From: a phage
NCBI GenBank assembly: GCA_032279465.1
Contig: GCA_032279465.1_4357.1
DNA length: 44,179 bases
Reading direction: 5' to 3' (one strand)
The position numbers were made by a program, and so were the translations under genes. How positions within the stretch are numbered: the first letter of the stretch is position 1; each line of letters opens with the position of its first letter. The notes under the pieces were generated by a model. That model did no database searches. It had not been told where the DNA came from and saw nothing but the letters and a program-made list of their open reading frames with translations. This document shows, piece by piece, positions 97 through 35,844 of this stretch.

Positions 97-585
97 TCAA
101 CCTTTCACCGCGCGCCCGATAGCCTCAGCCTCCTGCCACGGCTTGCCGTCAAACAGTGCAAGACGCCCGGCAGTACGGCGGCGCAGACCAAGTAACGGTC
201 TGCCGTTCTGGTTGATGAACAGTGTCAGCTTAGCCCGCAGCGTCGCGATGTCACCAGAACGCAGTGCCTTACCTGTGCCAGTAGTAGCCGCAATCACACC
301 GGCACCAGCGTTATACACCAGGTCGCACACTGCGTCGAACTGTGCCTGTGTAAGCGAATGGTGTGCTGCCGCATCAACTGCGGCAACCGCCTTAGCCATA
401 TCACGATTTAGTAACAGGAGTCCTTGTCCCGGGGTGATGGTCTGCCCCGCCTTAACATGCGGGCCATAGCTTCCATACCCAATAGTCAGGTACTTCTCAT
501 TCGGTGTAGCGCGATACGCGGTTCCGCGGAATCCCTCGAACGCGGCAGTGAATTTGATGCCATTATCTGAAATATTTCGAGACAC
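97..585 (-). CDS. Endolysin, GH24 T4/P22-type lysozyme
   Basis: ORF track 97..636; motifs ISDNGI, FEGFRGTAY, TIGYG typical of phage lysozymes; likely start is GTG at 585 behind a GAGGG Shine-Dalgarno rather than TTG at 636. Confidence 0.85.
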   Translation of the reverse strand: MSRNISDNGIKFTAAFEGFRGTAYRATPNEKYLTIGYGSYGPHVKAGQTITPGQGLLLLNRDMAKAVAAVDAAAHHSLTQAQFDAVCDLVYNAGAGVIAATTGTGKALRSGDIATLRAKLTLFINQNGRPLLGLRRRTAGRLALFDGKPWQEAEAIGRAVKG

Positions 586-835
586 GCTTATGCCCTCTGT
601 ACGACAGCCACGCCTGACGAATCTGGCGCAGCGCAACTAAAGTGATTAATGTCTCAGGCAGCGTCGGTGACATGCTGCCCTGTAACAGGTGGATACATCC
701 GGCGGCGCAGACAATAGCAGTCAGAATATAAAGCACACGCACGAACAGCCCGTCGTCCACGTGTTCGTTATACACGTTGAACAGGGACGAAGCGCCCATT
801 GAAAGCATTACGACAAACCAGAATAGCTCAGCCAT
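563..835 (-). CDS. Small membrane protein of lysis cassette (antiholin or second holin candidate)
   Basis: ORF track 563..916; internal ATG at 835 abuts holin stop; hydrophobic segments LFWFVVMLSMGASSLF and ILTAIVCAAGCIHLL. Confidence 0.45.
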   Translation of the reverse strand: MAELFWFVVMLSMGASSLFNVYNEHVDDGLFVRVLYILTAIVCAAGCIHLLQGSMSPTLPETLITLVALRQIRQAWLSYRGHKRVSKYFR

Positions 836-1136
836 GTGGTCCTCCTGGGAGGGCAATATCGCCGCCCGATACGACGCCAGAAAGGCGGGAATAGATAGGC
901 ATCCAGAGAATGGCAATGATGAATCCGAGGCCAGCTATCTCGCGCTCGCCAGTAATACCAAACCATTGAGCGGCAAGAGGTGCGCCGAAAATGGCGCACG
1001 CGAAGCCGGTGAGAAGAAATACCAGTCCGTCAATCGGCCCTGATATAGAATTTTTATGTTGTCTTAGTCCGACCAATCCCCCGACCAGTGCGGCAGCGAG
1101 AAGCCACCCCGTCACTGTTTCAGTAAATTTATCCAA
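828..1136 (-). CDS. Holin (three predicted transmembrane helices)
   Basis: 102 aa with three hydrophobic helices; immediately upstream of endolysin. Confidence 0.6.
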   Translation of the reverse strand: MDKFTETVTGWLLAAALVGGLVGLRQHKNSISGPIDGLVFLLTGFACAIFGAPLAAQWFGITGEREIAGLGFIIAILWMPIYSRLSGVVSGGDIALPGGPHG

Positions 1137-1211
1137 GATGAATCCCCCAGGTGCGTATTAAGTATGCAGTAACTGGAGGATAGCACGGTTATGAATTATC
1201 TTAATAACGGT

Positions 1212-1505
1212 TTATTTATGACGCCAGATGTATTGTCGTCTCTGCGGTTTAGTCGGAATATCATCGTATCCGAGCGATTTCCAGTAATTAAATAACCGAT
1301 TAGCGATTGCCGCGCGTTCCTGTGTTTTAAACTCTCCTAGATTCACGGCCTTTCCGTTCTGGAATCCACAGGCGCGGATAGCTTTACGCCTGGCCTGAAT
1401 CTCGGGGTACAGCGCGTTACGGCGGCGCTTGTGTATACGTGTCTTCGCTCTCGGTGACAGCGGCGCAAGGCCGCTTCGTTTCAGGATGTCAGTTGCAAGA
1501 GACAT
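1212..1505 (-). CDS. Hypothetical basic protein
   Basis: ORF track 1212..1550; likely start at internal ATG 1505 overlapping the upstream stop; Arg/Lys-rich. Confidence 0.4.
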   Translation of the reverse strand: MSLATDILKRSGLAPLSPRAKTRIHKRRRNALYPEIQARRKAIRACGFQNGKAVNLGEFKTQERAAIANRLFNYWKSLGYDDIPTKPQRRQYIWRHK

Positions 1506-1693
1506 CACTCCACCCCCTCCACATGTGTAACTGACCCACAGTTCGCGCACTCGACGTAATCAGGGTGCTGGTCTTTGTATTTCTGTAACTCAGCTTCAAG
1601 TTTCGCGTAATCTTCGTAAAGCACTAACACGCCCTCAACATCAGGAGTAAACCCGAATATCTGGTCGTAGGTATATCTCTGCACCATAATCAC
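1505..1693 (-). CDS. Hypothetical protein with CxxC pair
   Basis: 62 aa ORF, contains CANCG; translationally coupled to neighbours. Confidence 0.35.
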   Translation of the reverse strand: MIMVQRYTYDQIFGFTPDVEGVLVLYEDYAKLEAELQKYKDQHPDYVECANCGSVTHVEGVE

Positions 1694-1893
1694 TTCTCCT
1701 GTTTACCAAGTCGCTTAGGTGAGCAGATAGCGCGTACCTCTGAATCGATGGGCTTGTCACCCTGAAACAGGAAGTGCGCGTTCTCTGCGGCGCGTGCCGC
1801 TGACTGGCACGCCCCCATCGAGTAAAACGTTTCCGATGCCGCGAGTTGCATCTGGCCTGCGGACAGTACCCAGATAAATAAGATGCTGGTCAT
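1690..1893 (-). CDS. Hypothetical protein
   Basis: 67 aa ORF, hydrophobic N-terminus, stop/start overlap with neighbours. Confidence 0.35.
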   Translation of the reverse strand: MTSILFIWVLSAGQMQLAASETFYSMGACQSAARAAENAHFLFQGDKPIDSEVRAICSPKRLGKQEK

Positions 1894-2333
1894 TCGGTTA
1901 TAGCTCCACCGCAGTTATCACAGACTACAGTGTTGCCGTAGTAAGTTCCGCAGTGAGCCGGAATGCACGAGCATACAGGTAGTTGAGCGTCTTCCTTTCG
2001 GCAACCGGATTGTTCTGGCGCATCCTTACATCCGAGTTCCTCAAGTGCTTTGCTAAGGTATTGGCGGCGCAAAGTGTCAGTCATTGCACTATTTGCCCGC
2101 CGGATGTACCCAATCGCGCCTTTAGGGTCCAGGTCAACGATTGAACGAAGACACATAACCTCGTTTTCAGCGCAATCCAGCGCACAGGTTAGTTCCTTAA
2201 TCTGCGCCGACGCGTCACGTAACTGATTCTTTAGTGACTGCACTTCATGCACCAGGTCTTCGCACTGGTTGCAGTTTACCTGCTGCCGTAGTTGGGCAAT
2301 CAGGTACTCGAATACTTCGTTTTTGTTACTCAT
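1890..2333 (-). CDS. Hypothetical coiled-coil protein with Cys-rich C-terminus
   Basis: 147 aa; predicted coiled coil then CSCIPAHCG...CDNCGG zinc-binding-like cluster; first gene behind promoter at 2365-2394. Confidence 0.45.
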   Translation of the reverse strand: MSNKNEVFEYLIAQLRQQVNCNQCEDLVHEVQSLKNQLRDASAQIKELTCALDCAENEVMCLRSIVDLDPKGAIGYIRRANSAMTDTLRRQYLSKALEELGCKDAPEQSGCRKEDAQLPVCSCIPAHCGTYYGNTVVCDNCGGAITE

Positions 2334-2364
2334 CTTCTGTCTCTCCTCTTGTTTGTGTAAATGA

Positions 2365-2394
2365 ATAGTAGCCTATTCTATCTTAGTGTGCAAG
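2365..2394 (-). promoter_or_regulatory. Sigma70-like promoter (type 1: TTGCAC-N18-TACTAT) with AATAG-N4-CTATT inverted repeat
   Basis: Minus-strand -35 TTGCAC (2389-2394), -10 TACTAT (2365-2370); inverted repeat 2364-2377; about 30 nt upstream of gene start 2333. Confidence 0.5.
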
Positions 2395-2551
2395 TAAATT
2401 TTATTGGTGTTTGTATTGTTGCATCTCCTGCAATAGTCGCTTCGATTGTTGCGTTTGATGGAAGTGTCGCCTTTTGACGACACTAAGTTAAAGTTGTACG
2501 CTGCCGTGTAGCAGCGTAAGTCACTCGGTAAAATCCCAAACTATTGACCTG

Positions 2552-2739
2552 TTACACCGGCGCCGGTGGTTCAGGTAAGGGCATCCAGTGCGTTATATCA
2601 CCGTGATATAAACTCTTTGCAGGCCCCAGTAGCCATCTGAATTAACACGCATAACCTCACAGCCAACAAAACAATCAGTTACAAGAACGTATTCATAAGG
2701 CTCCGGCATCCGCTCACTACACTTAATCCACTTGCTCAT
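2552..2739 (-). pseudogene. DUF551-like small protein, apparently frameshifted
   Basis: Frame from ATG 2739 gives MSKWIKCSERMPEPYEYVLV... then stops at 2593; the -1 frame continues ...HGDITHWMPLPEPPAPV to 2552, which is the hallmark DUF551 C-terminus recalled from memory. Confidence 0.4.
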
Positions 2740-2897
2740 AAATCGCCTCTCTTCTCAAATGCGCCAGCCATTACATTCGCACCAGCTTTCCACGCCCGCC
2801 ACGCGAGACGCGTCTTAACGTTCAGGTACTCTTTCTTCGAACCCTTATTAACCGGCAGACCCTCGACGATGGCCCACCGTTCGAATGCTTCTCTCAT
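2736..2897 (-). CDS. Hypothetical small protein (53 aa)
   Basis: ATG at 2897 overlaps upstream stop (ATGA); below ORF-track size cutoff. Confidence 0.3.
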   Translation of the reverse strand: MREAFERWAIVEGLPVNKGSKKEYLNVKTRLAWRAWKAGANVMAGAFEKRGDL

Positions 2898-3049
2898 ACC
2901 AGAACCTCGCATTCATCCCGATACACGAACAATAATGACCCTTTGTACTCAATCATAAAACCATAATGGTTGCTGCTGAACGCCAGAAAAACATCACCTA
3001 CCGAGATACCGAAATCTATAAGCCTGCGGTCAGTTATTCGAATTTTCAT
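2894..3049 (-). CDS. Hypothetical small protein (51 aa)
   Basis: ATG at 3049 overlaps upstream stop (TAATG); MKIRITDRRLIDFG... Confidence 0.3.
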   Translation of the reverse strand: MKIRITDRRLIDFGISVGDVFLAFSSNHYGFMIEYKGSLLFVYRDECEVLV

Positions 3050-3252
3050 TAACGGCAACCTCCCTCAGAGTCGTCGGCACGAGCATCATGATTCGATGCC
3101 GTTCGTATAGCCAGTAAGCTATTTAGCATTTGCTGGCTATCCATCGTAATAATTGTAATCCCGTCCGATAAATGCACCTCGTAGCGTTCAGCTACGAAAT
3201 ATATTTCCTCGAAATCATGATGTTTCAGTTCTTCAAATAATTCTTCCATCAC
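3049..3252 (-). CDS. Hypothetical acidic protein
   Basis: 67 aa ORF, coupled to flanking genes. Confidence 0.4.
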   Translation of the reverse strand: MMEELFEELKHHDFEEIYFVAERYEVHLSDGITIITMDSQQMLNSLLAIRTASNHDARADDSEGGCR

Positions 3253-3437
3253 TTCACCCTTTTAAATTTAAAATTGTTGCCGATGAGTTTTAACTCATTA
3301 GCTTCGTAATAAACCGAAGAAGTTAATCCGTCCTGCCTGATATAACGGATGATATAAGACCCTGGGTATACGACAGACTCTTTTCCGACAACACCAAAGC
3401 CATATGCTGTTTTCACCAACTGACCATTCTTAAACAT
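3249..3437 (-). CDS. Hypothetical protein
   Basis: ORF track 3249..3446; probable ATG at 3437 behind GGAGTGAGGG Shine-Dalgarno; first gene behind promoter 3472-3500. Confidence 0.4.
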   Translation of the reverse strand: MFKNGQLVKTAYGFGVVGKESVVYPGSYIIRYIRQDGLTSSVYYEANELKLIGNNFKFKRVK

Positions 3438-3471
3438 AACCCTCACTCCTCTGTCTCGTTTTGATAAGTGA

Positions 3472-3500
3472 ATAGTATCCTATTATGTTGGGGTGTGCAA
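3472..3500 (-). promoter_or_regulatory. Sigma70-like promoter (type 1: TTGCAC-N17-TACTAT) with AATAG-N4-CTATT inverted repeat
   Basis: Minus-strand -35 TTGCAC (3495-3500), 17-nt spacer, -10 TACTAT (3472-3477); inverted repeat 3471-3484. Confidence 0.55.
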
Positions 3501-3559
3501 GAGATTAGTTACGTTGCCGTTGTGATTCTTTCGTTTCTTAAAAGAGTACGCAACGCAGT

Positions 3560-3774
3560 GGGTGGGCGTTAGCCCACCCCAGCGGAGTGAAGTACTCTCT
3601 ATCTTGCTTACGGCAACTATAGAAACTTTTAATTATCAGTGACTTGGATATTTAGGCGGGATTAACAATAGACTTTGACCCTTCCGAAAGCGTCAGCGGA
3701 ACTACACTCAAGTGCCTAATGGCACGCGTTGCGTTCCCTGCCGCTCCGCGGTCGCTTGCGATATCTCACAAGCT
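3560..3774 (-). ncRNA. Structured leader RNA, copy A (putative antitermination/attenuator element)
   Basis: Non-coding; core 3665-3790 is a paralog of 35955-36078; predicted start near 3774 from promoter 3781-3809; 5' hairpin 3754-3773; covarying stem 3698-3702/3733-3737 enclosing hairpin 3712-3725; ends at GC hairpin 3560-3579. Confidence 0.45.
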
Positions 3775-3780
3775 CAGTGA

Positions 3781-3809
3781 AGCTTAGCATATTTTCAAGT
3801 AAAAGTCAA
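3781..3809 (-). promoter_or_regulatory. Promoter of leader RNA copy A (TTGACT-N17-TGcTAAGCT)
   Basis: Minus-strand -35 TTGACT (3804-3809), 17-nt spacer, extended -10 TGcTAAGCT (3781-3789); same architecture as 36069-36097. Confidence 0.5.
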
Positions 3810-3856
3810 TACCAGTAGCATCTTTTGTATTTTAGTAACTTTGCGTGGTGTTTTGG

Positions 3857-3885
3857 TTGCTTTTACATTCACGCTATCCTATACT
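3857..3885 (+). promoter_or_regulatory. Sigma70-like promoter for plus-strand early genes
   Basis: -35 TTGCTT (3857-3862), 17-nt spacer, -10 TATACT (3880-3885), about 30 nt upstream of ATG 3917. Confidence 0.45.
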
Positions 3886-3916
3886 CGTTTTCACCAAACA
3901 AACAGGAGATATAAAA

Positions 3917-4099
3917 ATGCAGCATTACATGACACAGAATGAAGTGGCTGAACGTATCGGGGTGACCCGTCAAACAATTAATAATTGGTTGCGCAGCGGT
4001 AAATTCCCTGATTGCTGTATTAAGGTTATGGGTCGCCGTTTACCAGGAACATTTGACCGTAATAAAGTTGAAGCATGGATTAAGGAGAACGTGAAATGA
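3917..4099 (+). CDS. Small HTH DNA-binding protein (AlpA/excisionase-like)
   Basis: ORF track 3845..4099; ATG 3917 behind AGGAG; helix-turn-helix segment NEVAERIGVTRQTINNWLRSGKFP. Confidence 0.6.
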   Translation: MQHYMTQNEVAERIGVTRQTINNWLRSGKFPDCCIKVMGRRLPGTFDRNKVEAWIKENVK

Positions 4100-4308: not shown

Positions 4309-4376
4309 AAGAAACCCCAACGCCAGAACGTCGGGGCTAAAGTACAAATCATCAAAGTAAGCATAAGGATTATACA

Positions 4377-4505
4377 ATGACAAAGTTAATAGTTCCACAG
4401 CTACGCCGCCAGAAACACGGCGCTGACTTCTTCGCACCGGTAAAGATGAACCGCGCAATGCGCCGTATGCAGGAAGCCTTAGAACGTGCGGAGAAAAAGA
4501 AATGA
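4377..4505 (+). CDS. Hypothetical small basic protein (42 aa)
   Basis: ATG 4377, stop overlaps primase start (ATGA); below ORF-track cutoff. Confidence 0.3.
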   Translation: MTKLIVPQLRRQKHGADFFAPVKMNRAMRRMQEALERAEKKK

Positions 4506-6754
4506 ATATTGTTTTTGCAACGCTGCGCAACACATTCGATAAAAACCCTGTAGCGCGTGAGATGCCTCTCGAGCAGTTTGTGGAGTATGTCTGCGATACA
4601 TCGAAGCGTTTATCCGTGGATCCGTCGTGGTCTAAGGAAGAGTACGACGCTGCCAAGATTAAGCAGAAAGCTATTGCGCCTGTTGGGGGTCGCCGTAAAA
4701 ACGCTATCCTGGAAGACAGTGTGGTTAAGTTCGATTTTGACCATCTCAACCGTACTCAGTACCGCGACCTTGCCCGCAAATTCAAGAACGCACCGTTCTT
4801 CAATATTCTGCATACAACGGCATCGCATCAGCATGTGTGTAAAAACGGTGATTACGCCTTCCGCGTTCTGGTTCCGGCTCGCACGCCGTTTAACTCTAAC
4901 GACGCGTGGATGGTCCAACGGGCTATTTGTGCAGAGTTAGAAATAGATGAAGCCTTGCGTGACCACTGCACGGAAGACGGCAACCGCCTTATCTATCTGC
5001 CACATAGAGAGTCAAAGATAACGGTTACAGAAGGGCGTGTTATCCGTGCCGAGCGGTACATCAAGAAAGCCGAAGAGATGGGGTTGAGTAAACGTGAAGT
5101 TAAGACACTTGCCGCCGATGAGTATGGGCTTAATGCTGATATAGCGCATTTCTGCGAAGCCGAGCTTGGCCTTGACGCTTTATCTTCCGGGCGCGGGTAC
5201 GAAGTCCCATGCCCTAACGAACATCTGCATACAGGCAAAGGCTCCACAAGCATCATGCTTGATGGTAAAGAAGTGCGCTTTGTGTGCCAGCATACAAACA
5301 ACGGCGCTTGCACCGAGCTTAACCGCCGACAGCATTTGGCCCTGCGTATGTGCGGCCTGCCAGACGAGCTTAACGTAGACAAGCAACCTATCAGTATTAA
5401 CAGCATTCGTGCGGCTCTGCCTGATTTACCGGATGAAGAGATTGAAGAACTGCACCGCACAGAGAACGAGGAGCCTGTAACTTGCACGCTGGAAGACCTT
5501 GAAGAAGAGGACGAGTTACCAGAACCGGTAAAGGCTGATTTCGTCGTTGAGGGGTACATGCCGTCGGATTGTATCTGGGATATTGTCGGGGAATCCGGCA
5601 CGTACAAATCATTCTATACGCTGGGGATGATGTACCTGAGCGCCGCCGGGTACCGGTTTGCGGGGGCTGACACCCAACGTTGCCACCATTTCTATATTGA
5701 CGGCGAGGGTGGTGCGACTACACGAACACGTATTGATGCACTCGCGGCTAAATATGGCGAGGAAGGTAAAGATTATGTACATGTCATCGATATGGGCGAA
5801 ATACTCGCTACGCATGGTGATAAAAAAATTCCAGCTCTAATCCGCAGGATGCGCGAAACCGCAGGGGATGAACCTATTGGCATGGTTGCCTTCGACACCC
5901 TTAACCAGACGCTGGCCCTGACGATTGATAAGTTCGACGAGAACAGTTCATCAACGGCAATCGGTATGGGTAAAGTTATCGCCATCCTGAAAGAAGTGCG
6001 CGATGCAACTAAAGCCGCTGTCGGTGTCGTTCACCATACTCCGAAGGGCGGAAAGAAAGCCCGCGGCAGTGGAGCATTGTATGCGGGTGTCGACGTGGAA
6101 CTTACAATCGAACGCGCTACCGGCCGTCAGATAAACGTATACCACTCTAAATTTAAGCACGGTCCGCAACAGAAGACGGTTGGCATGGTACTGGAGTCTG
6201 TACAGTTCCGTGAAGCACCGCCGCCGAAAGAGTACCGCGCGGTTGAGTTCCTCGGTAGCACAGAGGAATACGGCACAATAGTAAACCTCGACCTGCCTGA
6301 GCCGCACAAGGCGCTTGTATTGATGCCGTGGGGCTTCGAGCCATTCAAGACCGACGAGGAGAAAGAGAGGGAAGAAGGGTTAACTAACGAAGGTAAACAA
6401 AATGTACGTAAAACCATAGAGAACGCCGTCAACAGTTCCGAGGCCACGATACTCGCGGCGTTTGAACTGGCGGAGGGGACCTACAACGGCAACGAAGGCA
6501 TCACAGTCGCCGCGGCGAATAAGCTCGCACAGTCAGACCCCAACGCAAAGGCGTTTAACTCCAAAGAAGCCATAGAACGCGGGAAGATTAAGAAAATGGT
6601 TGAGGCTGGGTATCTTGTCCCGGGTACTGACGAAAACAATCAGATAATCCCAGGCCGTTACAGACTGAACACCATGATAACAGATAACAAGATTCCGAAG
6701 ACAATATACGAGCCGAATGAAATGCTGACAGTGACCGAGGAGGATTTGGAATGA
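4502..6754 (+). CDS. DNA primase/helicase (N-terminal primase-like and zinc-binding region, C-terminal RecA-like ATPase)
   Basis: 750 aa; Walker A GESGTYKS, ...VVHHTPKGGKKARGSGALYAGVDVELTIER typical of RepA/DnaB-like phage helicases; Cys/His cluster CPNEHLH...CQHTNNGAC. Confidence 0.65.
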   Translation: MNIVFATLRNTFDKNPVAREMPLEQFVEYVCDTSKRLSVDPSWSKEEYDAAKIKQKAIAPVGGRRKNAILEDSVVKFDFDHLNRTQYRDLARKFKNAPFFNILHTTASHQHVCKNGDYAFRVLVPARTPFNSNDAWMVQRAICAELEIDEALRDHCTEDGNRLIYLPHRESKITVTEGRVIRAERYIKKAEEMGLSKREVKTLAADEYGLNADIAHFCEAELGLDALSSGRGYEVPCPNEHLHTGKGSTSIMLDGKEVRFVCQHTNNGACTELNRRQHLALRMCGLPDELNVDKQPISINSIRAALPDLPDEEIEELHRTENEEPVTCTLEDLEEEDELPEPVKADFVVEGYMPSDCIWDIVGESGTYKSFYTLGMMYLSAAGYRFAGADTQRCHHFYIDGEGGATTRTRIDALAAKYGEEGKDYVHVIDMGEILATHGDKKIPALIRRMRETAGDEPIGMVAFDTLNQTLALTIDKFDENSSSTAIGMGKVIAILKEVRDATKAAVGVVHHTPKGGKKARGSGALYAGVDVELTIERATGRQINVYHSKFKHGPQQKTVGMVLESVQFREAPPPKEYRAVEFLGSTEEYGTIVNLDLPEPHKALVLMPWGFEPFKTDEEKEREEGLTNEGKQNVRKTIENAVNSSEATILAAFELAEGTYNGNEGITVAAANKLAQSDPNAKAFNSKEAIERGKIKKMVEAGYLVPGTDENNQIIPGRYRLNTMITDNKIPKTIYEPNEMLTVTEEDLE

Positions 6755-26076: not shown

Positions 26077-26113
26077 GCTAGTATAGGACAAATCCTAAGC
26101 ACGAGGAATAAAC

Positions 26114-27729: not shown

Positions 27730-28283
27730 TGGCTAAGGTAATTATTCTTAATGGCCCTGCGGGTTGCGGGAAAGACACGCTTGCTATGGCGCTGGTAGAA
27801 ATGGGCTTTGCGAAAGGAACTACCAGTTTCAAGAATCCAATGTTCAATATTGCTTTGGCAGCGTTAGGCCAGGATGCTTACCACGAATTTCTCGACGGCT
27901 ACGACGACCGGGCGCGGAAAGAAAAACCCGAGGGTTTTCTTAATGGGTTGTCCCGCCGCCGGTTAATGATTGCCATTTCTGAGCAATTCATTAAACCGGT
28001 ATTCGGCGATGATTATTTCGGTAAGTATCTTGCTGAAAACTTGCCTGACGGCGACGAAGTTTTTGTAGTGTCCGATGGTGGATTCGCCAGTGAAGTTGCC
28101 CCTATCGTCGCCGCGGGGCATGACGTGCGAATCGTCCGCCTCCATCGTGACGGCTATACGTTCATCCGCGATAGCCGTGGCTATCTGTACGATGTTAGTG
28201 GTGTAAAAGATTACGACACCTACATCATACCGGGTGACGTTAAATCGAACGTTATAGACATTGCTTTAAAATTAGGTTTGTAA
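27729..28283 (+). CDS. Deoxynucleoside monophosphate kinase (T4 gp1-like)
   Basis: 184 aa; P-loop ILNGPAGCGKDT at N-terminus. Confidence 0.6.
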   Translation: MAKVIILNGPAGCGKDTLAMALVEMGFAKGTTSFKNPMFNIALAALGQDAYHEFLDGYDDRARKEKPEGFLNGLSRRRLMIAISEQFIKPVFGDDYFGKYLAENLPDGDEVFVVSDGGFASEVAPIVAAGHDVRIVRLHRDGYTFIRDSRGYLYDVSGVKDYDTYIIPGDVKSNVIDIALKLGL

Positions 28284-28287
28284 GAAA

Positions 28288-28315
28288 AAGGCCCCGAAAG
28301 GGGCCTTAGTTTTAT
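28288..28315. terminator. Bidirectional Rho-independent terminator
   Basis: Stem AAGGCCCC/GGGGCCTT with loop GAAA, then TAGTTTTAT; between dNMP kinase and convergent major tail gene. Confidence 0.65.
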
Positions 28316-29484
28316 GCGTAGGTGATACGTTGAATTACGATAGACGACTGGTACTGATTGCCGGTAGCCTGGCCTTCAATGGACTGAGTGATTGACTCAG
28401 GCCCACCAATCTCAGGTGTAACCGCCGTAAGCTCTGCACGTTTCAAACTGAAAGACATAGCCCCGTTTACCCCTGCCAGAATAGAGTTAATCTCTACCTG
28501 CTGCTCGTTGATAAACTTCTGAATCATCGCCATGTCGTACAGCTTACCGGAGATGGAGAAGGTGTTAGCTGCTCGGCTACGCTCCACAAACGCTACGTTA
28601 GTGTTGCCGAGTTCGAACTGTGCGGACGCGCTGTTGTCGTTGGTGATGGTCAGGCTATCGCAACGCAACGGCGTAGAACCGTCGAACACAGAAACATCGA
28701 CCGAGGAGAATGGCTCGTCACCAAAAGTAACAGATGAGAAGTTGGAACCGGTCGGCGGCGTAGTGAGAATCTCCTGACTGCGACCGATGAATGGGAAGCT
28801 GCCAGTTACCATCGCGTTAACAGCCTGTTCGATGGTAAAACCAGAAACTTCCACGCCTTTGGTTAACGTGTACGCGTCAGTACCGCCGCACTGGCCTTTG
28901 TACCAGGTAAGGATAGAGAACGTCTTACACGTGTTACCGGTTTCCAGCGTGTCGCCGGTTTTAGCCTTACTGGTTTTTGTCTCGGTGGTCAGGGTGTGTT
29001 GGATGCCCGCACCAGTAACAACGGTATCCGTTACTGCGGTAACAATAAATGGTTTTGCGTTATCGCCTGTTAAGTCGGTAAACGCAATCAGGTCGCCTAC
29101 CCCAACTCCGTCAGTGATAAAACTGCCGGTAGCGCGTGTGAACGTCTTGCCCGCGGGTGCGACGGTAATTGATAGCCCGGTCAGAGAACTACCGGCATGC
29201 CATGTAGAGCCTAAAGCGCCCGCCAGCCAGTCGTCCTGGCTTTTCGAGCTAAGCTCGATGGCGTATTCTCCACTAACCTGTTTGTTACCGGTGCGGATGG
29301 ACGTAGTTTCACGGCTGCCGTCCAGTTCGTTGGAGGTCAGCGTGTCGCGGGTAATGGCAGGAACGCCACCTGTGTTACGCAATGGTGACCAGACCGGGTT
29401 AGTCGGTGTTACGCCAGGGGTAGTTTCTGCCACATAGAATTGCGCGGTATTCGCGCCCTTAAAAGGAGTTGTAGCCATATTCAC
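28312..29484 (-). CDS. Major tail (tube) protein
   Basis: 390 aa, position after tail terminator-like gene and before chaperones. Confidence 0.55.
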   Translation of the reverse strand: MNMATTPFKGANTAQFYVAETTPGVTPTNPVWSPLRNTGGVPAITRDTLTSNELDGSRETTSIRTGNKQVSGEYAIELSSKSQDDWLAGALGSTWHAGSSLTGLSITVAPAGKTFTRATGSFITDGVGVGDLIAFTDLTGDNAKPFIVTAVTDTVVTGAGIQHTLTTETKTSKAKTGDTLETGNTCKTFSILTWYKGQCGGTDAYTLTKGVEVSGFTIEQAVNAMVTGSFPFIGRSQEILTTPPTGSNFSSVTFGDEPFSSVDVSVFDGSTPLRCDSLTITNDNSASAQFELGNTNVAFVERSRAANTFSISGKLYDMAMIQKFINEQQVEINSILAGVNGAMSFSLKRAELTAVTPEIGGPESITQSIEGQATGNQYQSSIVIQRITYA

Positions 29485-29897
29485 AGCCTCTTGGTGAATG
29501 CAATAAAGTTAATTGACAATGGTCGTTTGGCCCATCCGTTTTCTACAATCAGCGGCCCCAGGCTAACCGATTGAACCTCGGCGCAGATGTCGTTACGCGA
29601 AAATGCCTTACCTGATTTAAACGCCGTGTTAAGTAAGTCTGCCATTTTATTGATTGGCGCGCTACCTTTCACCGATGCGTAGTTAATGTCTATCTGATAG
29701 ACACCGGCGCGTTGTTCCGTGAAGAATAAGTCAGCCTGCTCGGTATCCGCCAGCAACATGTAACTTGCCAGATACGGCGTATCTGTTGACGTCGGCGCGT
29801 CGATGTTTTCAAGCGCTACCTTGATGCCGTTGGTGGTTCCGAAGGCTACCAGCGGCACATCAAACGCTTTTGTTAAGTCCTCAAAGTAGCCCATCAT
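29481..29897 (-). CDS. Tail terminator/completion protein (by position)
   Basis: 138 aa immediately upstream of major tail gene. Confidence 0.4.
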   Translation of the reverse strand: MMGYFEDLTKAFDVPLVAFGTTNGIKVALENIDAPTSTDTPYLASYMLLADTEQADLFFTEQRAGVYQIDINYASVKGSAPINKMADLLNTAFKSGKAFSRNDICAEVQSVSLGPLIVENGWAKRPLSINFIAFTKRL

Positions 29898-30289
29898 CTC
29901 ACCTTGCTAGCTTCTTCGTTAATGAGTTGCTGGAAGCGGGACACGTTAGTCCTGACGAATCCTTGCGGGGCCTGTTGCGACCAGCCATACTCCAGCCGTT
30001 GTGCATACGGCAGGTTATTTGTCAGCGTGAACTCATGCCAGTCGGTGGCTTTCAGCACGAAACTTGTAGCGTTTCCGGTTGCTGTGTTCCCTGATTTATC
30101 CGTAGCATCCGTAATCCCGGAAGCAGGAGTACCGCCAGATGCCATCCAGTTCATGCGAAACCGACCAGTATCTACCGGACTCGCCTTTATAATAGCGGAA
30201 AACAGCTTGATAGACACCTGACGCATCACCTTCTCAGGGTTCTTCTTCGCCTTTTCCACGAACTTAGAGACGTCCAGCGCGAAACTCAT
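29894..30289 (-). CDS. Head-tail connector protein, HK97 gp10-like
   Basis: 131 aa; SPVDTGRFRMNWM segment resembles HK97 gp10 family. Confidence 0.5.
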   Translation of the reverse strand: MSFALDVSKFVEKAKKNPEKVMRQVSIKLFSAIIKASPVDTGRFRMNWMASGGTPASGITDATDKSGNTATGNATSFVLKATDWHEFTLTNNLPYAQRLEYGWSQQAPQGFVRTNVSRFQQLINEEASKVR

Positions 30290-30645
30290 TTTCTCACCTG
30301 AATAAAGTAGGACACAACATCATCGTTAACCACCTTCTTCTCAATGGCTACGACGGACCATTGCTCGCCGCCGAATTGCACTTTGTCTTCCATCTTAGGA
30401 ACGACGCTGTAATCGGCTTTAACAATCATGTCGCCAGCCTGAATCGTCGTACCGTTCACCAGACCCGCATTAACAGGAACCGGAACGGCCTTCAACGGCA
30501 ACACTTCATCCGCAGACCAGACGTACTCACCGAGAACTTCGTCCCACACTTTCGAGCCAGCGCGAATCAGAGATACCGTGCTACCGAATTTGGTTAACAG
30601 GCGTGTACCTACGCCTTGCATACGTTTACTGAAAGCTGTGCTCAT
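30286..30645 (-). CDS. Head-tail joining protein (putative)
   Basis: ORF track 30286..30699; probable ATG 30645 behind GGAGG. Confidence 0.4.
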   Translation of the reverse strand: MSTAFSKRMQGVGTRLLTKFGSTVSLIRAGSKVWDEVLGEYVWSADEVLPLKAVPVPVNAGLVNGTTIQAGDMIVKADYSVVPKMEDKVQFGGEQWSVVAIEKKVVNDDVVSYFIQVRK

Positions 30646-31259
30646 CAGGCGGCCTCCAGTCTCGAGATAACCAGTAGCGCGGATGGTGCTGTACCCCATG
30701 AGGTTACGGTAGCCGCTTGCGGGTATACGCCGCCGAAGTTGCTTCCGGAGCTATCCCGCATAATCTGAACGGCAAAAGTCTGGCCTGCTGTTGGGTTAAT
30801 AACAACGCGAGATTCAATCGGGATTGTGGTGTCCGCGCTTACCAGTTTCGTGGCTGCTGGTGAGCCGTACTGAGCGCCGTTTACTAAAATACGTGATAGC
30901 AGGATTGACGTTCCGCTGGCACCTGTGCAGCCTGCCTGTAACTTGATGCGAACGGCGTAGTTACCCGCGGTGTTGAATGTAACAAGCCCCGCGGCATTAA
31001 TCATTACCGGGTCGGATGCACTACCCTGAGCTGCACCGAAAGTTAACTGCAATGCCGTATCTACCGCGGTAGGCGCTTGGGTTACCGTAGACGCGGCACG
31101 GAGAACTTCAACCTCTTTAACACCTGGAGTGGCGTAAATAGGTGAGTCAGCCATCTGTGTCATTACCTCGCGCAACGCTGCTGGGGTAATAAGCCCGGTA
31201 GTGTTATCGGGGAGGTTTGCGCCGATAAGAGTAAACATCTCTGATTTAGTCTTCGCCAT
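30645..31259 (-). CDS. Hypothetical structural protein
   Basis: 204 aa Ala/Thr/Gly-rich protein in connector region. Confidence 0.4.
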   Translation of the reverse strand: MAKTKSEMFTLIGANLPDNTTGLITPAALREVMTQMADSPIYATPGVKEVEVLRAASTVTQAPTAVDTALQLTFGAAQGSASDPVMINAAGLVTFNTAGNYAVRIKLQAGCTGASGTSILLSRILVNGAQYGSPAATKLVSADTTIPIESRVVINPTAGQTFAVQIMRDSSGSNFGGVYPQAATVTSWGTAPSALLVISRLEAA

Positions 31260-31261
31260 TT

Positions 31262-31774: not shown

Positions 31775-31777
31775 TTT

Positions 31778-32431
31778 TCACCCCTTCTTACAGTTATCAA
31801 AGTGCCACCTCTTTAGAAGAGATAGCGCCCCTTCGGTTCCGCAATGTGGGCATACCCCGCGCGGGCGTTTCATTCCAGTAAGTTTATCTGAAATTTTCTT
31901 GACAGTCTCGCCCTTTAACGTATGGCCCTTCTTAAAACTTCCGGAGTTAGGTTTTCTATTAACCTTGCCAACGATTCTATTTGGGTCCGCGAACTGGCAT
32001 TTCTTGCAGCAATATTTACGCGCTCGTGATTTAAAACGGTAGGGGATCGGCTGGTCGCATGTTACACATCGTTGTGGGTTTGCCATGTAATGCTCTATTC
32101 TGGCTTTTCTACTTGCAGTTTCCCAGGTAGCAATTCCTTTATTCCACGCCTTTTGCCCTAGATGTGCTTGTCTGAGATTTTCTATACGTTTATCAGAAAA
32201 TTTAACACCAGTATTCAACCTGGACATCTCTATAGCCCAAGCCTCTTTCGCCAACTTAAAGGAATGTGAGTTAACTTTTGACCTCTGATTGTTTTTAGGG
32301 TTAATACACATAACCCTCCAGGCGAAAGCTAGTTCTTTAGTCCCGTGTATCTTATAGAGAAGCCAATGCGCAATAAAATGCTGTCTAGCGCTCAAAGATA
32401 CAATATTGTCAAAAGTATCTCCACCACCCAT
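31778..32431 (-). CDS. HNH homing endonuclease with NUMOD3-like repeats and C-terminal zinc finger; canonical start lies inside the HNH motif
   Basis: 217 aa from ATG 32431; upstream in-frame codons read NAKINPFSGYTEKHHIVPKC before MGGGDTFDNIVSLSARQHFIAHW with no ATG/GTG/TTG back to stop at 32492; GHTLKGETVKKISDKLTG NUMOD3-like; CPHCG; AT-rich. Confidence 0.6.
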   Translation of the reverse strand: MGGGDTFDNIVSLSARQHFIAHWLLYKIHGTKELAFAWRVMCINPKNNQRSKVNSHSFKLAKEAWAIEMSRLNTGVKFSDKRIENLRQAHLGQKAWNKGIATWETASRKARIEHYMANPQRCVTCDQPIPYRFKSRARKYCCKKCQFADPNRIVGKVNRKPNSGSFKKGHTLKGETVKKISDKLTGMKRPRGVCPHCGTEGALSLLKRWHFDNCKKG

Positions 32432-32582
32432 GCATTTCGGGACTATGTGATGTTTTTCGGTATACCCACTAAACGGATTGATTTTTGCGTTCTATATTAA
32501 CTGTTCATAGATTTTGGCGTAGTTCATGATTCACCCTTTTCAATGGAGGATGGATTCATTATGCCAACTACGCCAGATATTA

Positions 32583-33141: not shown

Positions 33142-33153
33142 TTTTAAGCTCCT

Positions 33154-33453: not shown

Positions 33454-33512
33454 AATTTACCTCTTAGTAAATGAAAAGAGGGACCGAAGTCCCTCTCGAT
33501 TATAGCTTAACC

Positions 33513-34562
33513 TTAAGCACCGACGCCAGTTACCAGGAAGGCAATCGGCACATGCTTACGTTCAACAACACGGTTCCAGTTGGAGGCGTTCGCCAGGTCC
33601 TGCCAGGAAGCGGAGCGTGCGACAGTCTCTGTGCCGTTACCGGTGATTACTGCGCTGGTGAAGCTGTAGCCCAGTGGGTGCAGCAACCAGGTCTTACGGG
33701 TCCACAGGGTTTCGACGCCACCACCGTTGCCGCGAGACGCTTCGCGTTCGTATTCCAGCGGGTTGGACGGAGAACCTTCACCGTAACCGATAGCGCCGTT
33801 GCCGAAGATGACGGAGATGAACTTGCGGCTCGGGCCAGTGTCAACTACGGTCATGCTGTCGTCAACAATCACGCGGTAGCCCTGGTAGGTGGCGAACATG
33901 GTGTTGTTGTCCGCGTCACGGATGAAGTCGATAAGCTGCTGCTTACGTGCCTGCGCATAAACGAAGCTATGCATCGCGATAGCCCCCAGCACTTCACCGC
34001 CGTTGGCCATCAGAGCATCGCCCATAGTCTGGGTAGCGTCGATGAACGCGCCAGCATCGAAGCCCAGAGTATCAGACACGTCGATAACCATGTCGTTCTT
34101 CTCGTGGTAAGCATCGGTAGCAGCTACGTTGTCGTTGTACAGACCGAGCGCGGTAGCAATCAGACGGCGTTGTGCCTGGCGCTGCCAGAAGTTATCCAGA
34201 CGGGACGCTACGGATTGCAGCGGGTTCTGGCTGGTCAGTTCGACAGTCAAATCCGCCTGACCGAAACCTTCGTTCAGGTATGCAACGCGGGCCATCATCT
34301 CACCGGTCTGCACGTTACGCGGGGTGGCGATGTCCTGGTATACATCGTTCGAGTAGTTAGGCTCGATAGAGGTATCAATCGCTTTCCAGAACGGAATATT
34401 AGCGACGTTGGACGGGCCGCGGGCAATCTCGGCAGCGTACGGGGTCGGGGTCAGAATACCAGACTGGAAGAACGCGGTTTTTTCTACCGGGTCCTCGGTC
34501 ATATAAGACGCCAGGACCGGGATGTTGCCGGTTACGATATCGCCGATAGTGGTAATTGCCAT
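33513..34562 (-). CDS. Major capsid protein
   Basis: 349 aa, preceded by scaffold and followed by decoration-like genes. Confidence 0.7.
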   Translation of the reverse strand: MAITTIGDIVTGNIPVLASYMTEDPVEKTAFFQSGILTPTPYAAEIARGPSNVANIPFWKAIDTSIEPNYSNDVYQDIATPRNVQTGEMMARVAYLNEGFGQADLTVELTSQNPLQSVASRLDNFWQRQAQRRLIATALGLYNDNVAATDAYHEKNDMVIDVSDTLGFDAGAFIDATQTMGDALMANGGEVLGAIAMHSFVYAQARKQQLIDFIRDADNNTMFATYQGYRVIVDDSMTVVDTGPSRKFISVIFGNGAIGYGEGSPSNPLEYEREASRGNGGGVETLWTRKTWLLHPLGYSFTSAVITGNGTETVARSASWQDLANASNWNRVVERKHVPIAFLVTGVGA

Positions 34563-34564
34563 TA

Positions 34565-35266
34565 TTATTTCCTCAGGGCTTTAAGTTGCCGTTCAAATTC
34601 GGCAGGGTTCGATTTATACAGGGCTAAACGCTCTGCTTCACTCATGTCTTTAAACGCTGGTGCGGCCCCGCCGCCTTTGCTACCGGAAGCCCCGCCGCCG
34701 GAAGCTGCATTTGCTTTGATCAAATGCGAAAACGCCTTGTGTTCGCGCAGGTATTTGCGGAACTGTTCCGGGTCAGTCGTGATTACGTTACCGTCTGCGC
34801 CAACAAACTTAGTAACCACATCATCGCCTTCGAACTCAGTCTTAACGAACGGCGCAAGAATGTCCACTGCTTCTGGGGTAATAAAGTCACCCGCGAAAGA
34901 GCCTAGCACCGCTTTACGTTCGCTGCCGAGGATACGCTCTGCCATTCTGGAGATGCGACCGTCTTTCTCGGCTAACACCGGGTCATACTGGCTACGAATC
35001 GTCTTTTCGAACTCATCCATCTTACCAGCGGCTTTTAACGCCTCCTGGTGCGCGCGCTGCCGTTCTTCTTCGGCCTCTTTTGCTTTGCGAGCGGCTTCTT
35101 TCTTCTCCGCCAACAATGCTTCCTGATTAGCCTTAAGCCCGGCAACTTCTTTCTCAATCAGCGCCTGAACTTCTTCAGCGGTGAACATTTTCGGCGCGTC
35201 ACCGCCACCAGCTTTATCTTCTGCCCCAGCTTCTTCCTGGAACGGATAACGTAAAAAACGATTCAT
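34565..35266 (-). CDS. Scaffolding protein
   Basis: ORF track 34565..35320, probable ATG 35266; Ala/Glu/Lys-rich coiled coil immediately upstream of capsid gene. Confidence 0.6.
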   Translation of the reverse strand: MNRFLRYPFQEEAGAEDKAGGGDAPKMFTAEEVQALIEKEVAGLKANQEALLAEKKEAARKAKEAEEERQRAHQEALKAAGKMDEFEKTIRSQYDPVLAEKDGRISRMAERILGSERKAVLGSFAGDFITPEAVDILAPFVKTEFEGDDVVTKFVGADGNVITTDPEQFRKYLREHKAFSHLIKANAASGGGASGSKGGGAAPAFKDMSEAERLALYKSNPAEFERQLKALRK

Positions 35267-35348
35267 AGTCAGTATGTCCCCTGGACGTTGGAATCCGGGC
35301 CTCCCGGATTTACATGTCAAGAATAAATTATTCCAACATGCAAGGCAA

Positions 35349-35612
35349 CTATTCCAGAATATTCCTCACGTAATCCTGCAACATGAACACTTTCAGCCTC
35401 AGTTGCCGTACACATTCGGCGTTCTGAACGTCGATAGCCAAATCCTCATCGGCGTCGCTACTTGGCAGCGCCAGCTTGCACGGCGGCTGCATCATCGTCG
35501 TATCCGGGGATGGAATTGGCGTTGGCGACGGCGCGGGACTTGAACTGCACGCGCTCAGGGTCAAAAGTGCACACGCTGCGACCAGGCGTTCTAATGTACT
35601 TAACGACTTCAC
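35349..35612 (-). CDS. o-spanin (Rz1-like outer-membrane lipoprotein)
   Basis: Signal peptide with lipobox LSAC then Pro-rich SSSPAPSPTPIPSPD; starts inside Rz in another frame and extends past its stop. Confidence 0.55.
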   Translation of the reverse strand: MKSLSTLERLVAACALLTLSACSSSPAPSPTPIPSPDTTMMQPPCKLALPSSDADEDLAIDVQNAECVRQLRLKVFMLQDYVRNILE

Positions 35613-35844
35613 GGGTAATCACCTCTGATTTCGTCTTGCCTTCGTTGTCAGCGGCGGCTGCCTTCGATTCGTCCTGCTGCTGCCGTTGTGTTTTCTTAGC
35701 TAACTCAGCCTGTGCTTTTTGCTGTTGCTGCGAAACGAGATTAGCGCGGCCTTCGTGCCAGCCGCTGCGGTACTGATAAATGCCGTGTGTGTAAGCCTGG
35801 ATGATGAAACATGCTCCTGCTACGACGGTTGCTTTAAGATTCAT
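35458..35844 (-). CDS. i-spanin (Rz-like)
   Basis: 128 aa; N-terminal TM helix, Gln/Ala-rich coiled coil; overlapping Rz1-like ORF. Confidence 0.6.
   Translation of the reverse strand: MNLKATVVAGACFIIQAYTHGIYQYRSGWHEGRANLVSQQQQKAQAELAKKTQRQQQDESKAAAADNEGKTKSEVITREVVKYIRTPGRSVCTFDPERVQFKSRAVANANSIPGYDDDAAAVQAGAAK

Follow-up and report, generated by a model that had tools for sequence, protein, structure and literature searches.

In phage lambda, the spanins Rz and Rz1 accumulate in an inactive state, restrained by the intact murein until it is attacked by the endolysin, and their synthesis requires no co-timing with that of the holin. The lysis genes of phage T4 (t, e and pseT.3/pseT.2) are scattered over its genome. 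T4 has served as a precedent for such scattering in the survey of Kongari et al. (2018), who also described the 'Jersey' families of i-spanins and o-spanins, characterized by a 155-bp overlap of the two genes and constant Cys45 and Cys67 residues in the o-spanin (PMC6139136). Members of these families occur in Jersey, K1G, K1H, K1ind1-3, SETP3, Ent1-3, EP23 and HK578 (PMC6139136). In Schulenberg, the spanins were stated to be separate from the holin and endolysin, and a 'holin/antiholin pair' was named (PMC6763661); in VB_EcoS-Golestan, ORF7/8 code for the spanins and ORF66-68 for the holins and endolysin (PMC7203180). With regard to regulatory RNAs, features of the putL and putR elements of phage HK022 have been described (PMC9378689).

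The window, i.e., the whole 44,179-nucleotide stretch of DNA analyzed here, is a complete, circularly permuted genome of a coliphage of the genus Kagunavirus (Guernseyvirinae), and its two ends are contiguous in phage SHAK7858, which shows that they join. All five lysis ORFs are present at the coordinates given in the initial annotation, all on the minus strand, in two transcription units: the holins and endolysin belong to one operon, and the spanin pair heads the capsid-gene operon. The two groups are separated by 8,431 bp (8.4 kb), and only across the circular junction; the separation reported in the initial annotation was real, and its distance of about 9 kb is corrected here. This split layout is genuine, but it is normal and already published for the whole phage group, and is not new. 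Its presentation as a departure from the usual placement of spanins could not be upheld, given the reports for this group (PMC6763661, PMC7203180) and for T4 (PMC6139136).

A spanin pair of the Jersey family

The i-spanin (Rz-like) gene (35458..35844, minus strand) codes for a 128-aa protein that has a hydrophobic anchor at its N-terminus as well as a long helix and a single periplasmic Cys, C92. Its product matched phrog_2536 ('Rz-like spanin', 1.2e-54), and homologs were present in 652 phage records, many of them annotated as spanins. The hydrophobic segment (residues 3-17/23) is only moderate in this phage, with a Kyte-Doolittle value of 1.69 over 15 residues, and is clearer in homologs. 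A single-sequence AlphaFold model predicted one long helix at residues 3-64 (pLDDT 72-84), with low confidence for the remainder. Hydropathy, the model and the PHROG match all point to a single N-terminal transmembrane anchor followed by a largely helical periplasmic domain. Of the transmembrane helix and coiled coil initially assigned to this protein, the former was retained as a moderately hydrophobic segment, and the latter is weakly supported by the modeled helix.

The o-spanin (Rz1-like) lipoprotein gene (35349..35612, minus strand; 87 aa) begins with a GTG inside the i-spanin gene in another frame. The two genes overlap by 155 nt with a frame offset of 1, placing the pair in the overlapped class. 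Two 'Rz-like spanin' families were matched, phrog_1267 (residues 10-86, 5.8e-20) and phrog_5672 (residues 41-87, 2.4e-30). A lipobox, L-S-A-C, is present with Cys22 (MKSLSTLERLVAACALLTLSA followed by C), and is followed by a Pro-rich stretch and by Cys45 and Cys67, so that both partners contain periplasmic Cys residues as candidates for intermolecular disulfides. The lipoprotein signal, judged by pattern and hydropathy, was evident, and the lipobox was found in 6/6 lineages examined. The fact that both the lipobox and a C-terminal motif (PPC...SDADEDL..DVQNAEC..QLRL) were kept in six divergent lineages implied that this ORF is more than a chance occurrence. Annotations frequently give just a 47-aa fragment of the o-spanin, lacking the signal peptide.

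A good Shine-Dalgarno site precedes both spanin starts, and that of the i-spanin is strong (AAAGGAG). No Pfam match of these proteins to the lambda Rz/Rz1 families was detectable. Beside the endolysin, no other plausible lipoprotein or spanin ORF was observed, and no alternative candidate was found elsewhere in the genome, in agreement with the initial view that these are the only spanin candidates. The initial proposal of an out-of-frame Rz/Rz1-type pair with an LSAC lipobox and a Pro-rich stretch is likewise borne out by the coordinates, family matches and Cys22. Judged by their sequences, 35458-35844 and 35349-35612 are a predicted Rz/Rz1-type two-component spanin and another member of the Jersey family.

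The pair is located between the terminator of a leader element (copy B, described below) and the head scaffolding gene (34565..35266, minus strand; phrog_206, 2.6e-55; annotated in Bas73), which is the first structural gene after the spanins; this location had been noted correctly. The same position, with head-morphogenesis or Hoc-like genes on one side and the scaffold gene on the other, is occupied in Bas73, Jerseyvirus Ent3, Serratia phage Otaku and Dhillonvirus Bas15; separation of the spanins from holin and endolysin is likewise seen in Ent3 and in a Dhillonvirus. In Klebsiella phage Kp4862-1, homologous spanins are found inside a canonical holin, endolysin, spanin cassette.

Holins, endolysin and their terminator

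Two holin-family genes were identified. The first (828..1136, minus strand) has a TTG start and codes for a 102-aa protein with three Kyte-Doolittle hydrophobic segments (residues 8-22, 38-56 and 67-85), resembling class I; it matched phrog_2359 ('holin', 7.9e-32), and in relatives its homologs are labeled either holin or class I holin-like. The second (563..835, minus strand; 90 aa) overlaps the first by 8 nt, has two hydrophobic segments, resembling class II, and matched phrog_2508 ('holin', 7.4e-32). Originally listed simply as a membrane protein, it does have membrane segments and is actually a second holin-family protein, whose homologs are named antiholin or holin partner in relatives. 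The endolysin gene (97..585, minus strand; 162 aa, GTG start) overlaps the second holin gene by 23 nt. Its product is a soluble GH24-type enzyme, with matches to Pfam PF00959 (9.6e-26) and to the PHROG endolysin families phrog_33703 and phrog_7, and has no hydrophobic N-terminal segment (maximum KD19 score 1.15). On reading the sequence, no Asp corresponding to that of the T4 E-D-T triad was apparent.

An intrinsic terminator (1..32, minus strand) closes the cassette, consisting of a stem-loop at 32-8 that folds at -13.9 kcal/mol and a T8 run at 7-1, which reaches the edge of the window. Based on hydropathy, PHROG holin families, PF00959 and the overlaps of 8 and 23 nt, this is a canonical holin-endolysin cassette, in which small membrane proteins with two or three transmembrane domains and a charged C-terminus adjoin a muralytic enzyme that has neither a signal nor a SAR sequence. 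The gene identifications of the initial annotation, with PHROG or Pfam matches for all five lysis proteins, and its cassette ending in a terminator are supported.

Promoter-leader-terminator modules

Each of the two operons is headed by a promoter-leader-terminator module. A covariance model of the leader (R1) had exactly two matches in the window, at 35954-36068 (copy B) and 3665-3780 (copy A). Copy B (35954..36068, minus strand; 140.9 bits) is a structured, non-coding RNA of ~115 nt with a P1 hairpin and a long P2-P3-P4 hairpin. It is preceded by a promoter-like site, P_B (36069..36097, minus strand), with TTGACT, a 17-nt spacer and an extended -10 (TG-n-TAAGCT); we infer promoter function here, since a site at this position recurs in copy A and, in the form TAGACT-17-TACGCT, in Jerseyvirus, although a consensus promoter scan did not pick up P_B. 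The terminator hairpin of copy B (35860..35888, minus strand) reads GCCCCGC-TTTAA-GGCGGGGC, then TTTACTTAT, and lies 16 nt before the i-spanin Shine-Dalgarno site. A terminator scan placed the hairpin at 35888-35869, with a fold of -18 kcal/mol, and it is kept in Jerseyvirus with a compensatory change (GCCCGGC/GCCGGGC). The whole 286-nt copy-B module is 95-99% identical in 179/181 records. An annotated 36-aa ORF inside leader copy B is not kept in copy A.

Copy A (3665..3780, minus strand; 110.3 bits) heads the leftward small-gene operon that ends with the holins and endolysin. It follows a promoter-like site, P_A (3781..3809, minus strand; TTGACT, 17 nt, TAAGCT), and is followed by a terminator hairpin (3538..3600, minus strand) that folds at -33.7 kcal/mol, continues into TTTT and lies ~95 nt upstream of the operon's first gene. 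The two leader copies are 79% identical over 147 nt, with compensatory differences in P2, P3 and P4. In an alignment fitted to the R1 model, which favors the structure, 94.6% of cells were paired vs 82.1% in shuffles, and 14/28 pairs were changed on both sides vs 7.7, with at most 2 in slid controls. Thus, the ~115-nt leader is a structured RNA supported by covariation. Several of its single-stranded stretches are invariant, and no Rfam match was found for it. Of the few small proteins near the leaders that were scanned, the early HTH protein (3845-4099) was the only regulator-like match.

Occurrence of the second leader copy was limited. Jerseyvirus Ent3 has the same split layout and a single leader copy, before the spanins (R1, filters off). 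Among the 181 records holding copy B, only 43 extra places were found by BLAST, and approximately three quarters of these records show no second copy by this method. In K1G, terminator A is kept, but unrelated sequence occupies the place of the leader-A core. Because Ent3 is split with one copy and most copy-B records show no second BLAST copy, the pairing, judged from these comparisons, is lineage-specific and not part of the split lysis system. The initial annotation had suggested that paired leaders gate both lysis-bearing operons; homologous modules do head the two operons, but a role of the pairing in coordinating split lysis is not supported by this distribution.

A probable lysis system in two transcription units

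Our data are very probably explained by three-step lysis of the ordinary Gram-negative type, with the genes divided between two transcription units. By homology to lambda and P22, the two holin-family proteins would permeabilize the inner membrane at a programmed time, the soluble GH24 endolysin would then reach and degrade the murein, and murein loss would free a pre-assembled i-spanin/o-spanin complex for fusion of the inner and outer membranes. Spanins do nothing as long as the murein is whole, so synthesis at any time ahead of holin triggering would suffice, and their detached position among late genes would therefore be functionally neutral. The Jersey-family pair rides at the front of the late capsid/tail operon, in a position that is probably ancestral to Kaguna- and Jerseyviruses and common to Dhillonvirus. 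As suggested by their position, the putative promoter, structured leader and terminator before the spanins most likely regulate how RNA polymerase enters the late operon, and a second copy of the module would have been acquired in this lineage before the small-gene/lysis operon.

Other explanations assign the leaders a different role. Both modules could be read through on one signal, turning the two operons on together, and this coupling could be what permits the lysis genes to be split. Such coupling is suggested by the exactly two R1 matches, one per operon, both of which lie between a similar promoter-like site and a terminator, and by the related Kagunavirus K1B4, in which expression of the lysozyme and of the capsid genes peaks within one broad 'middle' temporal class, as would also suit the two-unit system above. 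In addition, the leader core is conserved whereas the terminator sequences differ, a pattern more in keeping with a terminator-independent (processive) read-through device than with an attenuator. However, the coupling is unlikely, as the split is conserved where the pairing is not (single-copy Ent3, the 43 second BLAST places among 181 records, and terminator A without a leader core in K1G); operon A begins with ~ten small early-looking genes rather than lysis genes; the terminase/portal/head-morphogenesis operon between the two leader-headed operons has a plain promoter and no leader (R1); and, as established for lambda Rz/Rz1, tight co-timing of spanins and holin is unnecessary. A similarly doubtful proposal is that the leader is a self-sufficient cis-acting antiterminator, like HK022 put, that binds its own polymerase and makes it terminator-resistant, the terminator being an insulator against incoming transcription and not a timed gate. 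Two similar copies per genome, two stem-loops beginning ~8 nt after the inferred start site, downstream terminators and the invariant single-stranded stretches parallel putL and putR (PMC9378689). Yet the element is ~115 nt vs ~70 nt for put, an R1 search of HK022 26000-31000, in the immunity region, with filters off gave no put match (best 5 bits, E=3), and a virulent phage would lack an obvious late switch if read-through were constitutive.

It is less likely still that leader and terminator serve mainly to produce a small stable transcript of ~210 nt, with its 3' end at the hairpin, which would act in trans or, like lambda 6S RNA, be a by-product. Conservation of the entire module is strong and the terminator is stable, as would suit such a transcript. 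In this proposal, downstream genes would be served by another promoter; between the o-spanin and scaffold genes we did find a second promoter-like site (TTGCCT-17-TATTCT) and repeated GGAATA motifs. However, the i-spanin start lies 16-25 nt after terminator B with no promoter-like site between, implying that the spanins would then be expressed only by read-through. Finally, that the spanin ORFs are chance or decayed, with something else disrupting the outer membrane, is extremely improbable: apart from the frequent annotation of the o-spanin as a fragment, no evidence for it was found, and it is contradicted by the strong family matches of both proteins, conservation of the lipobox, Cys45 and Cys67 across six lineages, the Shine-Dalgarno sites and the lack of an alternative spanin candidate in the genome.

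Like HK022 putL/putR (PMC9378689), the leaders occur as two related copies in the genome, lie close to a promoter-like site, contain two stem-loops and are followed by terminators, but neither sequence nor structure matches, the predicted RNA is longer than put and Jerseyviruses have one copy. The region before the spanin operon fits the layout of the lambda PR'-6S RNA-tR' region, served by antiterminator Q, with a putative promoter (here without a consensus-scan match), a leader of ~200 nt and an intrinsic terminator directly before a late operon that begins with lysis functions; in the Kagunavirus, the leader is a conserved structured RNA and the operon begins with spanins only. As in lambda Rz/Rz1, a type II inner-membrane protein and an outer-membrane lipoprotein are encoded in different frames of the same DNA, with a presumed role in the last lysis step, whereas in contrast to the lambda S-R-Rz/Rz1 cassette the genes are overlapped, not fully embedded, and do not adjoin the holin and endolysin genes. 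T4 also lacks a single cassette for holin, endolysin and spanins; however, its spanins have a 'separated' architecture and belong to a different family, and in the present phage the holins and endolysin still form a cassette from which only the spanins are detached. Escherichia phages Schulenberg and Golestan, both of the Guernseyvirinae, show the same split of spanins from holins and endolysin; the leader RNA and its duplication are absent from the two papers (PMC6763661, PMC7203180). With the Jersey family, the pair shares the 155-nt overlap, the N-terminal transmembrane domain of the i-spanin, and the lipobox, Pro-rich linker, Cys45 and Cys67 of the o-spanin; its i-spanin is 90-97% identical in amino-acid sequence to those of K1H and K1ind2, and there is no difference of substance.

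Lysis genes of the circular genome

By Megablast, the window groups with Kagunavirus coliphages (Guernseyvirinae), with 95-97% identity to BASEL phages Bas70-76 over 34000-37000 and 86-91% identity to phages such as SHAK7858, K-01 and Golestan over 1-4000. In SHAK7858, the match to window 44098-44179 continues directly into the match to window 1-199. Thus, the window represents a single complete genome (44,179 bp), circularly permuted and opened just after a terminator.

The initial annotation placed a holin, a membrane protein and an endolysin at the left end and a spanin pair about 9 kb away. All three left-end ORFs were present on the minus strand. The holin-family ORF (828-1136, 102 aa) matched phrog_2359 'holin' (8e-32) and contains three hydrophobic segments. 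The presumed membrane protein (563-835, 90 aa) is better described as a second holin-family protein, which matched phrog_2508 'holin' (7e-32), contains two hydrophobic segments and is named antiholin or class II holin in relatives. The endolysin (97-585, 162 aa) matched Pfam PF00959 (1e-25) and endolysin PHROGs, and its N-terminus is not hydrophobic, which makes it a soluble, holin-dependent enzyme. Genes within the cassette overlap by 8 and 23 nt, and no convincing promoter site was found in the 76-nt gap before the holin gene. The cassette does end in a terminator, a 32-8 hairpin with a run of eight T residues after it, and the 96 nt downstream of the endolysin have no coding content. An NCBIfam search returned nothing useful for holins or spanins. 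In SHAK7858, an HNH homing-endonuclease gene (2570-3085) is inserted between the second holin and endolysin genes; this insert is absent from the window. On the minus strand, 8,431 bp separate the endolysin stop (97) from the start of the inner-membrane spanin (35844), counted leftward through the circular junction.

The Rz-like inner-membrane spanin (i-spanin; 35458-35844, minus strand, 128 aa) matched phrog_2536 'Rz-like spanin' (1e-54). Its N-terminus is moderately hydrophobic, its periplasmic part contains a single Cys, and a single-sequence AlphaFold model predicted one long helix (residues 3-64, pLDDT 72-84), the C-terminal half being unreliable. Hydropathy and this model agree with the TM helix proposed earlier, followed by further helix; the coiled coil of that proposal was not demonstrated. 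The out-of-frame lipoprotein ORF was borne out by both sequence and PHROG matches. This Rz1-like o-spanin (35349-35612, minus strand, 87 aa) has a GTG start with GAGGTG seven bases upstream, and matched phrog_1267 over residues 10-86 (6e-20) and phrog_5672 over residues 41-87 (2e-30). It begins inside the i-spanin gene in another frame and extends beyond its end, and the 155-nt overlap puts the pair in the 'overlapped' class. Its N-terminus, MKSLSTLERLVAACALLTLSA|C, carries the lipobox LSAC leading to Cys22, followed by a Pro-rich stretch, Cys45 and Cys67.

Equivalent ORF pairs were taken from Jerseyvirus Ent3, Salmonella phage St162, Serratia phage Otaku, Klebsiella phage Kp4862-1 and Dhillonvirus Bas15. 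The i-spanin had a hydrophobic N-terminus in all five phages. Across the compared pairs, the o-spanin had a lipobox (LSGC, ITGC, TTAC, LCSC or LSAC), and the motif PPC...SDADEDL..DVQNAEC..QLRL was present in all. This conservation across lineages implies that the alternative-frame ORF is under selection rather than a chance occurrence. A scan of the circular genome for other lipoprotein-like ORFs, which was crude in that its filter also discarded the true o-spanin owing to an earlier VAAC match, revealed no second spanin candidate and none near the endolysin; apart from reading frames internal to other genes, it returned just a 42-aa membrane peptide (25948-26076). Neither outcome that would have contradicted the initial annotation, a lack of lipoprotein signal or TM helix in the predictions or another spanin pair beside the endolysin, was observed. 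In Bas73 and Ent3 records (4350-4493 and 1853-1996 in the numbering of the fetched loci) and in PHROG 5672, the o-spanin is a 47-aa fragment from an internal Met (window equivalent 35349-35492), without the signal peptide and lipobox Cys; the start of the complete ORF lies 120 nt farther upstream, at the GTG at 35612. Many database entries hold this truncated form, which should be replaced by the 87-aa ORF.

The leader element

A BLAST comparison of the 286 nt upstream of the i-spanin with the window identified a second copy on the same strand at 3666-3809, with 79% identity over 147 nt. Both copies open with a promoter-like site (TTGACT, 17 nt, TG-n-TAAGCT), designated P_B for the copy before the spanins (copy B) and P_A for the other (copy A), followed by a conserved core of ~115 nt. 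They end 60-130 nt beyond the core in different minus-strand terminator hairpins, at 35888-35869 for copy B (-18 kcal/mol) and at 3600-3541 for copy A (-33.7 kcal/mol). A 36-aa ORF (35939-36049, minus strand), recorded as a hypothetical protein in Bas73 and other records, lies wholly inside copy B. It had no PHROG or Pfam match, and in copy A the corresponding sequence lacks an ATG and is thrown out of frame by an indel. The ORF is probably not a gene, and these features argue that the leader element is non-coding.

An IMG/VR motif scan and fetched loci provided 35 distinct leader versions, of Kagunavirus B-type, Kagunavirus A-type and a divergent Jerseyvirus type. Single-sequence folds concurred on hairpin P1 followed by one long interrupted hairpin comprising helix P2 (CCG.CGGNGC with GCN'UUCGG), then P3 and P4. 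Applied to a plain MAFFT alignment of 14 leaders, RNAalifold recovered only the long-range P2 helix, because Jersey- and Kaguna-type hairpins were misaligned; this result was replaced by a hand-drawn structure, a covariance model (R1) built from nine Kagunavirus leaders with the folded structure, and a model-guided alignment. Only two sites in the window matched R1, 35954-36068 (140.9 bits) and 3665-3780 (110.3 bits), both on the minus strand; the Jerseyvirus versions matched as well (~39 bits, E ~1e-8). In the model-guided alignment, which is fitted to R1 and so favors the structure, 94.6% of cells were paired versus 82.1% in shuffles (none of the 500 shuffles attained this value), and 14 of 28 pairs were changed on both sides versus 7.7, with at most 2 in slid controls. 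One P2 position, which is C-G, U-A or A-U depending on type, was seen on the unfitted alignment as well. The loops GAGUGUAGU (UAGCGUAAC in Jerseyvirus) and GGAAGGGCC are invariant. Read by eye as an RfaH ops element, GAGUGUAGU gave 5/12 matches in this phage, and this candidate was dropped.

Rfam gave no match for the whole window at gathering thresholds, and only noise on the terminator hairpin for the leader region at E values up to 10. R1 had no match in the immunity region of HK022, which encodes the put antiterminator RNAs (putL/putR); therefore, the leader was not placed among put RNAs. R1 also found no further members in 80 other IMG/VR loci containing the 15-nt motif, and none in the St162, Otaku, Kp4862-1 and Dhillonvirus loci. 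Within this sample, the element appears to be confined to Kaguna- and Jerseyviruses. Copy B was 95-99% identical in 179 records, whereas the surrounding 3 kb was matched by 486 records, most of them with only 80-90% identity to it. A literature search on Guernseyvirinae and antitermination found nothing.

Leader copies and late gene expression

The initial annotation further proposed that paired leaders gate both lysis-bearing operons. Each operon is indeed headed by one copy: copy A heads a small-gene operon ending in the holins and endolysin, and copy B heads the spanin/scaffold/capsid/tail operon. Genome comparison, however, argues that the pairing is not integral to the split system. The complete genome of Ent3 has the same split (holins 39799-40369, endolysin 40350-40838, spanins 5987-6482), yet gave a single R1 match (5788-5888), before the spanins, even with filters off. 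Among 181 phage records with copy B (>80% coverage), BLAST shows only 43 extra places, and K1G keeps terminator A and everything downstream with unrelated sequence in place of the leader-A core. By these sequence comparisons, it is copy B before the spanins that is conserved, copy A having been acquired in a particular lineage. Operon A opens not with lysis genes but with about ten small genes whose function is unknown. The terminase/portal operon between the two units has no leader; this leftward operon (small genes, terminase, portal, head-morphogenesis) is headed by a good sigma-70-like site, TTGACT-17-TATATT (44157-44129, minus strand), directly after the endolysin terminator across the circular junction.

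Compared with window 3400-3900, K1G is near-identical from CACTGATAATTAAAAGTTTCTAT through terminator A onward, which marks a mosaic boundary; upstream of it lies a different small hairpin, GCCCCGCCATAAAGCGGGGC. The motif GTTTCTAT, common to copies A and B, may mark the recombination joint.

Only 16-25 nt, devoid of any promoter-like site, lie between terminator B and the spanin start, so that spanin expression must come from terminator read-through, and the leader RNA is the obvious candidate for controlling it. Because copy A, copy B and Jerseyviruses share a conserved core but have different terminators, a terminator-independent (processive) mechanism is favored over an attenuator with alternative pairing. 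The leader may act alone, like put, or with an early phage protein, or may be mainly a stable small RNA. It is possible, if on balance doubtful, that this ~115-nt RNA, with its P1 and long P2-P3-P4 hairpins and invariant loops, and with neither an Rfam family nor put similarity, represents a new class of phage cis-regulatory RNA. It would govern read-through before the late operon of Kaguna- and Jerseyviruses, and hence spanin, capsid and tail expression, alone or with an early protein; in a subset of Kagunaviruses, the module would have been copied before the small-gene/holin/endolysin operon, tying lysis to the same switch.

By homology, lysis most likely follows the standard pathway: holin triggering would let out the soluble endolysin, and murein degradation would then free the spanin complex for membrane fusion. 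Spanins are inert until murein is cut; thus, they can be made together with structural proteins, and no special coordinating device is required for spanin genes located apart. The only transcript data found, from the related phage K1B4, assign lysozyme and capsid to one broad 'middle' class (PMC12645636), which is compatible with co-regulation, although these classes are far too coarse as a test.

Both leader promoters have a small divergent gene beside them, on the plus strand. Beside copy B is a 67-aa protein of unknown function (36220-36423), followed by a hairpin (36432-36445), and beside copy A an 84-aa HTH protein (3845-4099; PF12728); no relation was found between the two proteins. An HTH gene is one of four early genes of K1B4 (PMC12645636), and shared annotation suggests that it may be a homolog of the 84-aa protein. 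In addition, TGGAATAA occurs five times in the window versus 1.2 expected, at 36111-36118 (-), 36134-36141 (+), 35328-35335 (-), 25934-25941 (-) and 32139-32146 (-), with an inverted pair just upstream of the P_B -35 site. The interval from the o-spanin stop to the scaffold gene contains more GGAATA repeats, and TTGCCT-17-TATTCT in this interval resembles a second promoter. The TGGAATAA/GGAATA sites may be operators for a DNA-binding regulator, flanking the spanin pair.

Spanin placement and known systems

The split lysis layout was confirmed, and its initial interpretation found partial support. Annotations and publications on Guernseyvirinae already describe this layout, and its spanins belong to a catalogued family. 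In this form the finding is of little consequence, being a known layout re-derived from raw sequence. The leader RNA is the only potentially new item: a conserved structured leader before the spanin/capsid operon is undescribed and could explain how late genes are switched on in these host-polymerase-dependent virulent phages.

In Golestan, the spanins are ORF7/8 and the holins and endolysin ORF66-68 (PMC7203180). GenBank records of Bas73 and Ent3 show two 'Rz-like spanin' genes between the Hoc-like/head-morphogenesis genes and the scaffold gene, Otaku has its spanins in that same position, and Bas15 likewise keeps it, adjoining the minor capsid protein gene. T4 is the textbook example of scattered lysis genes (PMC6139136). 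Kp4862-1 has a canonical cassette (799-1960), with a holin-like ORF (799-1023), a PF00959 endolysin with a hydrophobic, SAR-like N-terminus (1001-1495), and, at its end, an i-spanin (1480-1842) and o-spanin (1718-1960) homologous to the detached Guernseyvirinae pair. This spanin family is therefore found in both contexts, which cleanly illustrates the movement of spanin genes as one unit. Kongari et al. (2018) assigned the spanins of Jersey, K1G, K1H, K1ind1-3, SETP3, Ent1-3, EP23 and HK578 to 'Jersey' i- and o-spanin families, classed as overlapped, with a 155-bp overlap in Jersey and constant o-spanin Cys45 and Cys67 (PMC6139136); the spanin pair of the window has exactly the same features.
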